A DNA stretch of 64,000 nt from Escherichia coli 042 (GTDB lineage: Bacteria; Pseudomonadota; Gammaproteobacteria; Enterobacterales; Enterobacteriaceae): NCBI RefSeq assembly GCF_000027125.1, contig NC_017626.1. One strand, written 5' to 3'. Shown here piece by piece: positions 49,195 to 54,194 of the stretch. The notes under the pieces were generated by a model. It saw only the letters and a program-made list of their open reading frames with translations. It was not told where the DNA came from and searched no databases. Numbering within the stretch: position 1 is the first letter of the stretch; the number at the start of each line of letters is the position of its first letter. The translations under genes and the position numbers were made by a program.

Positions 49195-49580
49195 CAGTGA
49201 GTGACCTCTTCAAAGGTACAGTTAAAATCGGTATACATGGCATTATCCGAAATGCTCCACTCCCTGCAGACAACCCGGACAGTCCTGTTGTGTTTTGGCG
49301 GACGCCACAAAAAAGCACGAATCCCGGCATGACGGGATAAAAAACTGTCCAGCGCGGCACGGGAATATTCATCTGTGACACGAAATACCGGTTTAAACGT
49401 TTTCAGATCCGCATTCAGACCACCAGCCCGTCGCTGTTCATATCCGTCACCAAACTTTACCGTAATAACTGATGGCTTTCGTGTCGTCTCCATCCCCTCA
49501 CGGGGGATCCAGTTAAAAACTTCAGGCTCAGGCACTGTACAATCCTCCATCCCGACGCGATGACTGCATAATTGACACAA
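49194..49580 (-). CDS. M: minor tail protein M
   Basis: Lambda M-like (VKFGDGYEQRRAGGLNADLKT); the true start is probably internal to the track ORF. Confidence 0.8.
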   Translation of the reverse strand: MCQLCSHRVGMEDCTVPEPEVFNWIPREGMETTRKPSVITVKFGDGYEQRRAGGLNADLKTFKPVFRVTDEYSRAALDSFLSRHAGIRAFLWRPPKHNRTVRVVCREWSISDNAMYTDFNCTFEEVTH

Positions 49581-52500
49581 CCCTGCTGTCGATCAGATCC
49601 ACCAGTCCCCTGGCTGAGCGCGCATCTATCTCGCCATTGCTCCCTTGATTCTGAATGCTGATGTGATACACGGGAGAATAAACAAATCCACCGCCACCAT
49701 TCACATTTCCAATGGCCCTGACCCCAAGAGAGCCGTCCGCTGCCCGTGTCAGTGGCATGATTGCTTCAGGCCCGGCCTCGCCCATCAACCCGGCACCTTT
49801 CGCAAAAGCAAAATACGTCGGTGTATCCACAATAGTGTTACTGTAAGCACTCAGATTTGCCGATGTGTAAACACCACCTTTTGCGTTTGCCACTGCCCCC
49901 GAAATCCATCCGCCGACCGTACCAAGCCACCCTCCGGCACCGGAGAGTGATTTCAGTCCGTTAACAATGGCTGCATTCATCAGAATTTTTGAAACTTCCC
50001 GGAGAACTGAACTCCCCCAGTTCCTCCAGTCCACAACATTCCCGGCCAGTGCATCGGAAATATTTGATACCAGCCCGTCCATCGTGGAAACGACAGCATC
50101 TGCCGCCTGTGAAGCATAATCGGTGGCACTGTCTGCCCAGTTGGTCAGTCCCTCCTGGAGTCCGGCATTCCAGTTATTACGTAAAGCATCGGCCTTTGCA
50201 TAATAATCCTGCTGATCACTGAGACGCTCTTCCAGATATTTTTTATTCAGTTCTTTCTCCTGTTTCCACAGGGCTTCTTCAATTTCTCCGGCCTGATACT
50301 GTCTCAGCAGCTCGTTATTTTTCTGCTCAAACGCCTGCCGGATACTCCACATTTCCTGGAGTCGTTCACGCATCCGTGAGCCTTCACCATATCCCAGCAA
50401 CTGCGCTTCGTCAGATGCCCGGGCACTGGCATTACTGTCCGCCAGACTGCTCTCATACGCAGCAAGCTGCTCACGAATCTTTTTCTGGTCGATGAGTGCT
50501 GCATTCTGCAAAAGCGTTTTTTTCTGCGCTTCTGACAGGGTTGATAATTCGCCCTGACTGACCTGATATTTCATCTTAGCCAGTTCAGTATTCTGCCCTG
50601 CCAGTGCTATTTGTTCTTTTTGCTGTTTAATCAGCCGTTTATAAATATCTTCTGTTTTTTCCGCTTCGGTCTTTTTATGCGTTTTGGGTTTATTTGCCTG
50701 GTTATTTCGCCAGGCATCCAGTGAGTTATTGATATAATTCTGCCTGGCTGTCTGATACGCCTCTCCCACAAAGCCGAGATCATCCGCAGCATAACCCAGG
50801 CGGGCACGCTCACGGGCTTCCCCCTTCAGGCGGGACAGAGCCAGTTCGCGCTCGCTGTTATTCAGTGCAGTCTGCTGTTTATCATCCAGGGTTGCCTGTG
50901 GTAGCCGTAACGGTACATTCACCAGCCCCTGTCGCTGCTGAAGTAATTCATTACCGAGCCCGAGAAGGCGATTAAACTCGGTATGCTGCCCATTCATGAT
51001 CAACAGGGACTGATACGCTTTGTTTTGTTCCGCGGCCTGTTGACGGATCAACGCCACCCGTCGCTCCTCCAGCCCGGCAAGCACATCCTGAATGGATTGC
51101 GCTTTGCCCTGCATTTGTGTGAGACGGGACTGTTCAACTGCCAGTTGATTTGTTGCTTCTGCAAGCCCTTCTGTGACAGTTTTTACCGACGTCATGTGGT
51201 TAATCATAAAACCGTTATCGGTTGTCCAGCCCGGGTTTGCCAGCACATACTGATAGCCAGCAATTTTTTCCTGTAAGGATTTAATCTTACTTTTCTGCTC
51301 GTCAATTAACCTGTTTTGCTCATCAAGTGCCTGCCGCGTCTTTTCCTCATTATCTGACGCTTCAGGAAGCGACATTGCCGACGTTTTCTGGCGAATTTCG
51401 TCGATTGTTGCGGCATACTGGCGTGCAGATTCTCTGGCCTGCTCCTGATTCTGATACATCGTGTACCAGGCCGTCGCCCCCAGCATGACGAGTCCCGGCA
51501 CACCACCAACCAACCCCAGCGCACCACTTAACAGACGACTCCCCACTGACGTGACAGTATTCAGCGTTGTCTGTGCCGCTGTTCTGGCCGCAATATTACG
51601 GGTAAGTGACGCCTGGGCAGCTGTCAGCTTCGCTTCTGCTGCGGCCTGCCTTTCGGTACCGCGAGCAGCAACAACCGCCTGTTGCGCACGATAAACCGCC
51701 GCACGCGCCCTGGCGGTTGCTATCTGTGTCCCCCGAAGTTGCGCTTCAGCAAGAGCCACTTCGTTTCTGGCTGCAGTAATTAATCCGGCAGTTGCAGATC
51801 CAGCAGACGACGCCATATTGCCAAAATATCGGGCTACCCCGACGGCAACCAGAGCACCGGCAGCGGTTGCCACGGTGTCAATATTGCCTGCAATACCATT
51901 CAGCACACCGGAGAGCGTCTTCGTCACTCCGCTTGCCTCGTTCGCACCACCAACCCAGGCCATAAAGGCGTTTTCAACTTTGGTTGCAGAGGATGAAACC
52001 GTATCAGGCATTGCCGCATATTCATCACGTAATGCCCCAAGCTGACTAATCAGTGCAGGAACAACCTTATCGGCGGTCAACTTTCCGTTATCCGCCATGG
52101 CCTTCAGATCCTTACGGGCAACTCCCATTCCCGCAGCCAGAGCACGAATAACACGATCGCCGTTCTCATTCACCGAGTTAAACTCTTCACCGCGCAGCAC
52201 TCCCTGCGCCAGAGCCTGACTGAACTGCGTGATCACCGAACTGGCTTCTGCTGTACTGGCACCGGATAATTTCAGGCCCGTGGAGATCGCCTCGGTGACT
52301 TTCAGTACCTCCTCAGAACTGTAACCATACTCCCGCATGGAAGCTGCAGAGCGGGCAAAAAGGCTGGCGTTATCAGAAAAAGCCGTCCCCGTTCTCTGGC
52401 TGATCGCCATTAATTCACGCTGTGATGACTGAAAATCATCACTGGACTGTGAGGCCTGCTTCAGACGGGCATTTACTGAATTCCACTCATCGGCGAGAGA

Positions 52501-52761
52501 AATAAGATGACCGGTAGCAAAAGCCCCGGCAAATGCCCCCGCCATGTTCAGTGCCGAAGATTTAGCTGTATTTATCTGATCCGTCACTTCTGCCAGTGCA
52601 CGCCGCATTTCACGGGATGCAGCAGCGGACTGTCGGCCTCCGTTCTGCATGGTACGGTAGTAATCCTGCCCCATACGCGAAGACCGGGAGATCTCTGACT
52701 GGAATGACCGGGAATTTGCCGAGATTTTAATAATCAGTTCACGTAATGTCGCCACACTCAT
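49528..52761 (-). CDS. H: tail length tape-measure protein
   Basis: 1077-aa largely alpha-helical ORF between the G/T chaperones and M. Confidence 0.85.
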   Translation of the reverse strand: MSVATLRELIIKISANSRSFQSEISRSSRMGQDYYRTMQNGGRQSAAASREMRRALAEVTDQINTAKSSALNMAGAFAGAFATGHLISLADEWNSVNARLKQASQSSDDFQSSQRELMAISQRTGTAFSDNASLFARSAASMREYGYSSEEVLKVTEAISTGLKLSGASTAEASSVITQFSQALAQGVLRGEEFNSVNENGDRVIRALAAGMGVARKDLKAMADNGKLTADKVVPALISQLGALRDEYAAMPDTVSSSATKVENAFMAWVGGANEASGVTKTLSGVLNGIAGNIDTVATAAGALVAVGVARYFGNMASSAGSATAGLITAARNEVALAEAQLRGTQIATARARAAVYRAQQAVVAARGTERQAAAEAKLTAAQASLTRNIAARTAAQTTLNTVTSVGSRLLSGALGLVGGVPGLVMLGATAWYTMYQNQEQARESARQYAATIDEIRQKTSAMSLPEASDNEEKTRQALDEQNRLIDEQKSKIKSLQEKIAGYQYVLANPGWTTDNGFMINHMTSVKTVTEGLAEATNQLAVEQSRLTQMQGKAQSIQDVLAGLEERRVALIRQQAAEQNKAYQSLLIMNGQHTEFNRLLGLGNELLQQRQGLVNVPLRLPQATLDDKQQTALNNSERELALSRLKGEARERARLGYAADDLGFVGEAYQTARQNYINNSLDAWRNNQANKPKTHKKTEAEKTEDIYKRLIKQQKEQIALAGQNTELAKMKYQVSQGELSTLSEAQKKTLLQNAALIDQKKIREQLAAYESSLADSNASARASDEAQLLGYGEGSRMRERLQEMWSIRQAFEQKNNELLRQYQAGEIEEALWKQEKELNKKYLEERLSDQQDYYAKADALRNNWNAGLQEGLTNWADSATDYASQAADAVVSTMDGLVSNISDALAGNVVDWRNWGSSVLREVSKILMNAAIVNGLKSLSGAGGWLGTVGGWISGAVANAKGGVYTSANLSAYSNTIVDTPTYFAFAKGAGLMGEAGPEAIMPLTRAADGSLGVRAIGNVNGGGGFVYSPVYHISIQNQGSNGEIDARSARGLVDLIDSRVVSIMQSSRRDGGLYSA

Positions 52762-52801
52762 TCTCCGGACGAAAAAAAACCGCCGAAGCGGTTATGTTGA
52801 C

Positions 52802-53092
52802 TCACTGAGACACTATTAAAAGCGCGTTTTCCAGTCCAGCAAATGGATCTGATACGCCTTCTGTCTGCTCCTTCTCCCACTGAAGAAGCGCATCATTCAG
52901 TGGCACTTTGACCCCCTGCGCACCGTAAACAGCTGAAACAATCTGGGCAGCCCGGATATCAGCCCGTTCGTCCCCCAGCGGGCTGAACCTGTCAAATTCT
53001 GCCCACATCATGATTTCTGATGCGGACATTTCCCGGCGTAACTCTGACAATGTGCGCCCCATCCTGAGCGCCAGCATCATCAGAAAACGCAT
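52802..53092 (-). CDS. T: T portion of the G-T tail assembly chaperone fusion (expressed by -1 frameshift from G)
   Basis: ORF in the -1 frame relative to G, directly downstream of a slippery heptamer; this frame is open from the slip site into the ORF. Confidence 0.7.
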   Translation of the reverse strand: MRFLMMLALRMGRTLSELRREMSASEIMMWAEFDRFSPLGDERADIRAAQIVSAVYGAQGVKVPLNDALLQWEKEQTEGVSDPFAGLENALLIVSQ

Positions 53093-53103
53093 CCCCGGAA
53101 GCG

Positions 53104-53490
53104 CTACTTTTTTTTAACCTCGCCGGCATCACTGATCAGTTCCAGAGACTGCCGAAGAAGCCGCGCATGCACCGGGCCATACACGGCAATCACCTGTTCA
53201 CGATCATCCACTGAAAATACAGGTTGCAGTCCGGTATCACACAGAACATCGATGAACAGTTCAACATCCGCTTCCAGATTTCGGCGGGCGCGCTCCGCAA
53301 CGGATAACGGTGTCTCATCATCTTTTGCTTTAACGATCTCCTGCCAGCGCAACCAGGCTTCTGCAGAAGGTTCCCGTAATACAACCGTTGCCCCTTCCCA
53401 TTCAGGCACATCAACAGTTTTATGGCGAAACCCCGACATCGTTGCCAGTGCCAGATTACGGATATTTTTAGTCATCACATCTATCCTCAT
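53104..53490 (-). CDS. G: tail assembly chaperone G
   Basis: 128-aa ORF ending GEVKKK* at a run of A, upstream of the tape-measure gene. Confidence 0.75.
   Translation of the reverse strand: MRIDVMTKNIRNLALATMSGFRHKTVDVPEWEGATVVLREPSAEAWLRWQEIVKAKDDETPLSVAERARRNLEADVELFIDVLCDTGLQPVFSVDDREQVIAVYGPVHARLLRQSLELISDAGEVKKK
53107..53113 (-). promoter_or_regulatory. programmed -1 ribosomal frameshift site (A AAA AAG) joining G to T
   Basis: Minus strand reads GTT AAA AAA AAG TAG; a slip on A AAA AAG gives ...KK-VALPG-MRFLMML..., continuous with the T ORF. Confidence 0.6.
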
Positions 53491-54194
53491 TAACTGACGG
53501 TAACAGTGCAGGAAGTAGAGGTCACCTTGTTAACAGGACTTGCTGAATCAGAAATCTCGCAGGTATATGCACCCGCATCACCGGATACTGCCGATGCCTT
53601 ACTGAACGTTGCCGCCGTCTGTCCGGAAACAGGAGAACCACCTTTCTTCCAGACATAAGAATAAGGCGGCACACCACCCGCAGCCTCAACCGCCATTTCA
53701 AGTTTCGCTCCGGAAGCAACCCGCAGCGTGCTTTTTAAATCGGCCTTCACTTTCAGCGGCTCTGTCGTCAGCACAGGTTTACCTTTCAGGCGCAAGGAAA
53801 ACGTTGCAGCCACAACACCATTGGTTCCTGCAGACCAGGTATGCTGACGCACCTCTGCCATAAAGGTAAATCCGTTGCCTGACGGAAAAATAACTTTAAA
53901 GCCATACGTGGTGTCATTGTCATAGGCACTGCGCAACGCGTTCTGGGCAGCATTCAGATAAAAGTTGCCTGACATGGAAATCTCTGAAGCAGCCCCAAGG
54001 CCGTTAATATTTTCCTGCTCAACAGAACACAGCGTGGTGACATCAATATCCTGCTTTTGTCCTGCGGTAAACTGCACCTCTTTGATTGTACAGCTCAGGC
54101 CAAGATAGCTGGCAGAATCCAGGGTTTCTGCTGTTACCGGTGCAGACGAAATCATAATTTTCGTCAGTTGCGAACGCTCAAAATTAGAGGACAT
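53490..54194 (-). CDS. major tail protein with C-terminal Ig-like domain
   Basis: 234-aa ORF immediately upstream of G; the C-terminal 90 aa look like a Big_2-type Ig domain (PPYSYVWKKGG...GAYTCEISD); not lambda V-like in sequence. Confidence 0.65.
   Translation of the reverse strand: MSSNFERSQLTKIMISSAPVTAETLDSASYLGLSCTIKEVQFTAGQKQDIDVTTLCSVEQENINGLGAASEISMSGNFYLNAAQNALRSAYDNDTTYGFKVIFPSGNGFTFMAEVRQHTWSAGTNGVVAATFSLRLKGKPVLTTEPLKVKADLKSTLRVASGAKLEMAVEAAGGVPPYSYVWKKGGSPVSGQTAATFSKASAVSGDAGAYTCEISDSASPVNKVTSTSCTVTVS

Follow-up and report, generated by a model that had tools for sequence, protein, structure and literature searches.

In the 64-kb stretch of Escherichia coli 042 DNA analysed here (64,000 nucleotides, hereafter called the window), two tail assembly chaperone genes, G and T, are very probably coupled by programmed -1 frameshifting on the ribosome, as in the lambda G/GT pair. 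The element that carries them is, judging from its sequence, an HK97-like E. coli prophage. Assignment to the lambda type is based on the geometry of the slip site, on homology, on gene order, and on the conservation of both the two-frame layout and the slip site in related phages. A previous sequence-only reading of this DNA had placed such a signal at 53092-53118, and the feature is indeed present there, on the minus strand. We infer the ribosomal shift event itself, its low efficiency and the functions of the products from the features described below.

Geometry of the Slip Site

As read from the window sequence, the chaperone genes and the slip site all lie on the minus strand. On this strand, positions 53121..53081 read GAG GTT AAA AAA AAG TAG CGC TTC CGG GGA TGC GTT TTC TG, with GGC as the preceding codon. 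Direct reading places the slippery heptamer A AAA AAG at 53113..53107, in the canonical X XXY YYZ phase, and the zero-frame AAA AAG within it are the final two sense codons of G. The heptamer belongs to a run of exactly eight A (53115..53108; T8 at 53108..53115 on the plus strand), and the G stop codon TAG (53106..53104) is located directly 3' of it. A scan of the three frames shows that a TAA at 53116..53114, which overlaps GTT AAA, shuts the -1 frame directly 5' of the heptamer. Past this TAA, the -1 frame has 103 open codons until the TGA at 52804..52802. The T frame, offset by 2 (equivalent to -1) with respect to G, is open from 53113 to 52802, and the G stop is reached at 53104. The productive shift window, from the -1-frame stop to the G stop, measures 7 nt, all of which is filled by the heptamer. 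From the slip site, the -1-frame codons are AAA AAA GTA GCG CTT CCG GGG ATG CGT TTT, that is, KK-VALPGMRF. The previous reading had described a G chaperone ending in ...GEVKKK-stop on a run of eight A, a T open reading frame in the -1 frame and open from the slip site, an A AAA AAG slippery sequence and this same junction peptide. Each of these elements is recovered, with the run at exactly A8, the T frame open down to the TGA, the heptamer in phase and among the three best in E. coli (PMC4066793), and the peptide as the -1-frame reading of the ten codons above.

Such a sequence is rare in the window. Runs of at least eight A or T occur four times in the 64 kb, and none reaches nine. Long open frames, counted from stop to stop and of 150 codons or more, amount to 23,284 codons, and in these AAAAAAG occurs in phase at a single further site. 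It lies at 62244..62238 on the minus strand, and the terminase small subunit gene (MARPPKAPAYL...) probably begins about 4 nt further downstream, at ATG 62234. This second heptamer was considered as a frameshift site and rejected, being upstream of the probable gene start, in a leader that is probably not coding. Chance is an unlikely cause of the placement of the heptamer at the G/T junction, since the 7-nt window is wholly occupied by a heptamer that ranks among the three most prone to shifting in E. coli, and since this heptamer sits at the sole place where a -1 shift joins two tail-chaperone domains.

The Chaperone Genes and Their Neighbours

G encodes a tail assembly chaperone of 123 aa (MTKN...GEVKKK*; 53475..53104, minus strand) that matches phrog_344 and, over its full length, Pfam family PF06222 (Phage_TAC_1; E 5.2e-58, 194.8 bits for a gathering cut-off of 25). 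The protein ends in ...SDAGEVKKK*, the stop codon being TAG. An alternative start codon, ATG 53490, was proposed in the list of open reading frames, and overlaps the stop codon of the major tail gene. ATG 53475 has a GAGGA motif 8 nt upstream and is also the start of the RefSeq CDS (WP_000164664.1, with coordinates 53475..53104). Thus, G most likely starts at ATG 53475 rather than at 53490, and is 123 aa long.

The T segment (52802..53107, minus strand) corresponds, in the -1 frame, to 101 aa plus the stop codon (VALPGMRFLMMLALRMGRT...IVSQ*). It matches PF06223 (Phage_tail_T; E 4.1e-19, 69.2 bits for a gathering cut-off of 25.9), phrog_337 and phrog_14766, and is predicted to be produced solely within GT, as its C-terminal part. 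The predicted GT fusion (52802..53475, minus strand), built by using base 53107 twice, in AAG and in the codon that follows, is 224 aa long (...GEVKKK-VALPGMRFLMMLALRMGRT...), and the computed chain carries both Pfam domains, PF06222 and PF06223. In addition, phrog_14766 is a single profile of 224 positions, in which G occupies positions 1-121 and T positions 126-220. Since G and T span one PHROG profile, joined products of this family have already been deposited.

Upstream of G lies the gene of the major tail (tube) protein (53490..54194, minus strand; phrog_158, E 1.9e-109), which has a C-terminal Ig-like domain (Pfam Ig_2); its matches with Phage_TTP_11 and Phage_tail_2 are weak and fall below the cut-offs. 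Downstream of T lies the gene of a 1077-aa tape measure protein of the HK97 type (49528..52761, minus strand; Pfam Phage_HK97_TLTM, E 1e-93, TMP_3 and Tape_meas_lam_C; phrog_339). The gene order, all on the minus strand, is therefore major tail, G, T and tape measure. The region is 100% identical to a prophage present in many E. coli genomes, including those of ST131, where the order is capsid, connector, head closure, gp10-like, gp17, major tail, chaperone, T, tape measure and M/L/K/I/J-like tail tip genes.

A terminator-like hairpin (52772..52793, minus strand; AACCGCTTCGGCGGTT followed by T8) was observed in the 40 nt that separate the T stop (52802) from the start of the tape measure gene (52761). 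It falls inside what should be a single late operon, and no moron is found here. In HK97, putative terminators are annotated before G and just before the tape measure gene, where they flank the moron gp15.

Conservation of the Two-Frame Layout and of the Slip Site

The GT fusion was compared by tblastn with 50,697 phage records. Of these, 226 gave matches, which in 198 cases extend over 80% or more of the GT query. In every full-length phage match listed, G and T were matched as two pieces, in two different frames, and T is in the -1 frame at all 12 loci where the junction was located. The two-frame layout, together with an AAAG-type slip site in the same alignment column, is found in relatives down to 37% identity. 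The sequence of the slip site and its distance from the G stop vary among these relatives. The Stx1 phage has A AAA AAG directly followed by TAG, within a -1 window of 22 nt, and the same heptamer is found 10-11 codons ahead of the G stop in Bordetella and Burkholderia phages. G GGA AAG is used one codon ahead of the G stop in mEp390 and ECP1, and five codons ahead of it in lambda, within a 61-nt window. The near-cognate G GAA AAG is found as CGG GAA AAG five codons ahead of the G stop in HK97 and HK446, and as GTG GAA AAG one codon ahead of it in Cronobacter phage ENT39118. Finally, Klebsiella P7641 has GCA AAG TAA in a 7-nt window. The core shared by the family is a Lys AAG codon preceded by A, which points to slippage of Lys-tRNA(UUU). 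When fusions are built by a slip at AAG, the alignment with eight relatives runs unbroken through the junction, with the Lys codon in one column. Moreover, Pro127, located four residues into T and upstream of a conserved Met, is invariant in nine relatives. A joined or frameshifted CDS is already annotated in HK97 (gp13/gp14), in HK446 and in the Burkholderia phage Bcep176 (69/69').

Among 80 IMG/VR loci, 52 are of the A8 type, 27 are of the HK97 type and one has A7; a -1 open reading frame of at least 103 aa is intact in 78 of the 80. All 52 A8-type loci read TTAAAAAAAAGTAG, the heptamer being invariant. In these loci, the codons 5' of the slip site vary (GCC/GCT, GGC/GGA/GGT, GAG/GAA, GTT/ATT), and codons on the 3' side also vary. 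A profile of haplotype variability is circular with respect to the slip-site anchor, the loci having been chosen by this anchor, and the conservation reported here rests on unselected counts.

Several observations concern individual relatives. In HK97 (L012:905-959), in HK446 (L004) and in the 27 IMG/VR loci of the HK97 type, the frameshift region has no canonical in-phase heptamer. In the HK97 zero frame, CGG GAA AAG, the P-site tRNA-Glu would need to re-pair from GAA to GGA. Over the 27 HK97-type loci, CGGGAAAAGTCTCAACCCCCGGCGTAA shows hardly any variation, with a single substitution (GGG for GCG) in one of them. Klebsiella P7641 (L005:793-805) has an A_AAG tetramer followed by a stop codon and no heptamer, so that only single-tRNA slippage is possible; in a related contig (L052), an extra indel truncates G. 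In Escherichia phage vB_EcoM-606R7 (L002:972-1299), which is 97.8% identical, T is annotated as two short overlapping CDS, giving three "tail assembly chaperone" entries in total. As the slip-site context and the 103-codon -1 frame of this phage are the same as in the window, the split of its T CDS looks like an annotation artefact.

The beginning of T is also less variable than the end of G. Among 26 close haplotypes, the first ~90 nt of T show 0-2 variable columns per 14 nt, versus 3-5 in the 3' part of G (53000..53075 versus 53120..53235). This low variability may reflect either strong protein constraint or a recombination boundary; neither single-sequence nor alignment folds revealed an RNA structure that accounts for it.

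Stimulatory Elements and Proposed Mechanism

A downstream RNA stimulator was rejected as a component of the signal by both single-sequence and alignment folds. The fold of 87 nt has a z-score of -1.57, and 12 of 200 shuffled sequences fold as well, so that the value is not significant. The consensus fold of 10 relatives totals only -3.3 kcal/mol, with essentially no covariation and no conserved helix near the site; its sole helix, of 6 bp, lies 36 nt downstream, within the conserved LALRxGRT codons. On the 5' side, no dnaX-like SD element is found at about 10-14 nt upstream of the heptamer. Only a GAGG is present, 4 nt upstream; it was rejected as a stimulator, being too close to the heptamer and lost in close relatives (L060-L063) as well as in the Stx1 phage.

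In E. coli, A_AAA_AAG is one of the three most efficient heptamers, and Lys-tRNA(UUU) is highly shifty on AAG (Sharma et al., 2014; PMC4066793). The best heptamers reach ~0.3% frameshifting without stimulators in one reporter context, and ~3.7% with the best 3' context (PMC4066793). Since no stimulator was found, a low frameshift efficiency is expected at this locus, which would be in keeping with the role of GT in tail assembly.

Slippage on AAA AAG could, in principle, be influenced if a phage brought its own Lys-tRNA(UUU). In the related prophage Ecol_448 (L094:8544-8853, outside the window), four tRNA genes follow the Q antiterminator gene, with anticodons CAT (Ile according to RefSeq, Met according to ARAGORN), Lys-UUU, Thr-UGU and Gly-UCC. 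The window resembles the Ecol_448 strain only up to 59724, and a search of the window for tRNA genes found none. The idea that a phage-encoded Lys-tRNA tunes the shift was dropped, because the anticodon of the Ecol_448 tRNA-Lys, UUU, is that of the host and because the window is devoid of tRNA genes.

The following mechanism can be proposed. Most ribosomes would terminate at the TAG of G and yield the 123-aa chaperone, and a small fraction would slip back by one base at the heptamer. This could occur by a tandem route, in which the pair of Lys-tRNA(UUU) moves from AAA-AAG to AAA-AAA. Alternatively, the P-site Lys-tRNA alone could move from AAG to AAA, with the stop codon in the A site. Slipped ribosomes would continue on GUA GCG CUU CCG GGG AUG CGU UUU and produce the 224-aa GT (...GEVKKK-VALPGMRF...). 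If the products act as in lambda, the tape measure protein would be coated by G and by the G part of GT, and the major tail protein would be recruited by the T part. Tail assembly would depend on a GT:G ratio that is low and fixed.

The TAG that adjoins the heptamer may offer a second chance for P-site slippage while the release factor is awaited, as suggested by the recurrence of an AAG codon followed by a stop in the Stx1 and Klebsiella variants. A more elaborate version of this idea, which we regard as speculative and rather unlikely, is that the locus carries a minimal signal in two steps. Tandem slippage on A AAA AAG would be followed by a P-site-only slip on A AAG, at a weak UAG-C context awaiting release factor 1, with polymerase slippage on A8 as a possible third part. 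In such a scheme, the GT:G ratio would be set by termination kinetics and not by RNA structure, and the Klebsiella GCA AAG TAA would be a stripped-down, stop-assisted tetramer.

Comparison With Known Frameshift Systems

HK97 gp13/gp14 (NC_002167; 7472..7858, joined CDS 7472..8145) resembles the locus in its Pfam families and in its gene order. As for the predicted GT, HK97 gp14 is 224 aa long, with ~62% amino-acid identity over the fusion, and the slip occurs in the same alignment column, on the AAG Lys codon. The HK97 annotation states that the product is "translated due to a -1 frameshift". The two loci differ in the slip site itself, since the CGG GAA AAG of HK97 lies in a 49-nt overlap, with the G stop five codons further on, whereas A AAA AAG lies here in 7 nt and is followed by TAG. 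They also differ by a moron gene, gp15, which follows T and precedes the tape measure gene in HK97 and is missing from the locus.

The signal has a counterpart in O157 prophage ECs1801 and in the homologues from Stx1 and Stx2 phages (e.g., LC567819). These belong to the same family, with 64-66% identity, and as at the locus A AAA AAG is directly followed by TAG. In the Stx1 phage, the -1 window is wider than here (22 nt versus 7 nt) and the flanking codons differ. The corresponding cluster A_AAA_AAG_25 (tail assembly chaperone ECs1801), with 53 genes, is marked "[true]," meaning that a frameshift is expected (Sharma et al., 2014; PMC4066793). Like the locus, this cluster has no Shine-Dalgarno element and no hairpin above background stability (Sharma et al., 2014, Tables S4 and S8; PMC4066793).

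Lambda G/GT shares with the locus the T domain PF06223 and its place between the major tail and tape measure genes. In contrast, lambda G was not matched by sequence here, the G of the locus matching only PF06222 (Phage_TAC_1), and the lambda heptamer G GGA AAG, with its 61-nt window and its five codons before the G stop, also departs from the arrangement at the locus. The lambda-type G/GT chaperone frameshift was reportedly described by Levin, Hendrix and Casjens in 1993 and by Xu, Hendrix and Duda in 2004, 2013 and 2014. The features that characterize this type, namely the gene position, a -1 overlap at the 3' end of G, an in-phase slippery sequence and two-frame conservation, are found at the locus. 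In lambda, the tape measure protein has G and the G part of GT as binding partners, and the major tail protein has T (PMC5009743). The two lambda products, G and GT, are synthesized in a constant proportion; tails do not assemble unless both are present, yet neither is found in virions (PMC5009743).

The gamma/tau frameshift of dnaX uses the same A AAA AAG heptamer and the same shift-prone Lys-tRNA(UUU). There, ~50% efficiency is reached with the help of an upstream Shine-Dalgarno-like element and a downstream stem-loop. However, neither of these stimulators is conserved at the locus, which would thus not be a dnaX-type high-efficiency site. Moreover, the dnaX shift shortens the product, whereas the shift at the locus would lengthen it.

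Alternative Explanations

The homopolymer raises the question of a contribution of the RNA polymerase, which would add one A while transcribing the A8 tract, an A9 mRNA then being the main, or at least a substantial, source of GT. The tract is a pure run of eight A, and an A9 mRNA would read GUU AAA AAA AAA GUA GCG, that is, encode exactly the same GT. Runs of 9 A or T are known to cause efficient slippage of bacterial RNA polymerase (PMC5009743), and AAAAAAA is under-represented in all three frames of E. coli genes, possibly for this reason (PMC4066793). It should, however, be noted that A8 is one base below the nine reported as efficient. Moreover, homologues use G GGA AAG, G GAA AAG or GCA AAG, without any long homopolymer, which argues that the mechanism kept throughout the family is a slip of Lys-tRNA on AAG at the ribosome. 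In addition, conservation extends to the codon phase and to the G that follows the run, and these matter to the ribosome, not to the polymerase. A main or substantial role of transcriptional slippage is therefore improbable. Because the layout is kept in homologues lacking the homopolymer, polymerase slippage is rated as a minor contributor beside the ribosomal frameshift. Ribosomal and transcriptional slippage lead to an identical protein, so that mass spectrometry cannot separate them. As for the predicted junction peptide, its tryptic form would be cut at the lysines, and the junction-spanning form is VKKKVALPGMRFLMMLALRMGRTLSE.

Far less probable is that G and T are independent genes, T being translated from a start of its own at ATG 53092 or ATG 53080. 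Both codons are present, RefSeq has a separate 92-aa T CDS starting from 53080, and two separate CDS are also found in several phage records. Yet, on inspection, neither start has a usable Shine-Dalgarno sequence, as a GGGG abuts ATG 53092 without a spacer and only a weak GGGGA is found 12 nt before 53080. ATG 53092 is, furthermore, replaced by ATT in close relatives (L061-L063). The -1-frame peptide located upstream of the conserved Met is itself conserved, as exemplified by the invariant Pro127, and aligns up to the slip site. The T frame is shut exactly at the heptamer here, and in relatives it opens only near the end of G. Finally, lambda T is not made alone, according to Levin (1993), as cited in PMC5009743. 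The view of the sequence-only reading that G and T form one frameshift-coupled unit is supported by the PF06222 and PF06223 matches, by the 224-position PHROG, by the HK97 annotation, by gene order and by the relatives.

The frame relation of G and T depends on the length of the run, and the previous reading had named a run length that breaks this relation as one of the observations that would speak against its proposal. The 101-nt junction was found in 898 of 5,426 complete E. coli genomes, with at least 99% identity in 852, and every junction match listed spans exactly 101 nt. About 652 genomes have exactly A8 with identical flanks. A junction query with A9 had no exact match among the 898 carriers, the best matches being A8 with one gap. 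A query with A7 had exact matches in a handful of pig ETEC genomes (H159-H166), and the A7 count of ~14 was obtained as the difference in the identity bands of the A9 and A7 queries (666 versus 652). The A7 genomes apparently derive from one project, as judged from their accession series, and A7 is also present in one IMG/VR contig (L024:1561-1567). With A7, G continues out of frame over 160 aa, and a -1 shift no longer leads to T; these variants are either homopolymer sequencing errors or real inactivating mutations of the prophage. As no A9 was found and A7 occurs in only ~14 of the 898 carriers, A8 is the true and stable state, and there is no fixed in-frame G-T fusion. The least probable explanation, that G and T differ in frame through a sequencing error in the homopolymer or through a pseudogenising indel, the true gene being in-frame with A9, finds an argument in the error-prone nature of homopolymer runs and in the A7 variants of the pig ETEC genomes and the IMG/VR contig, but was rejected for this locus after the A9 and A7 junction searches, given the lack of A9 among the carriers, the A8 with identical flanks in most of them, and the two-frame layout kept in relatives with wholly different junction sequences.

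Implications

The feature described here is already known, as an ordinary G/GT site of the HK97 gp13/gp14 family, and the same heptamer-plus-TAG signal has already been catalogued for O157 prophages. It brings no new biology and leaves the understanding of tail assembly and of recoding unchanged. As a naturally occurring A AAA AAG that is unstimulated and limited to a window of 7 nt, the site could serve as a low-level frameshift reporter. Its practical value lies in annotation. RefSeq and most phage records present G and T as independent, with T started at an internal methionine, and the locus should instead be described by G (123 aa) and a joined GT CDS (224 aa), not by two genes. The module is present in about 900 of the 5,426 complete E. 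coli genomes, so that many records would be put right by a single joined-CDS rule.
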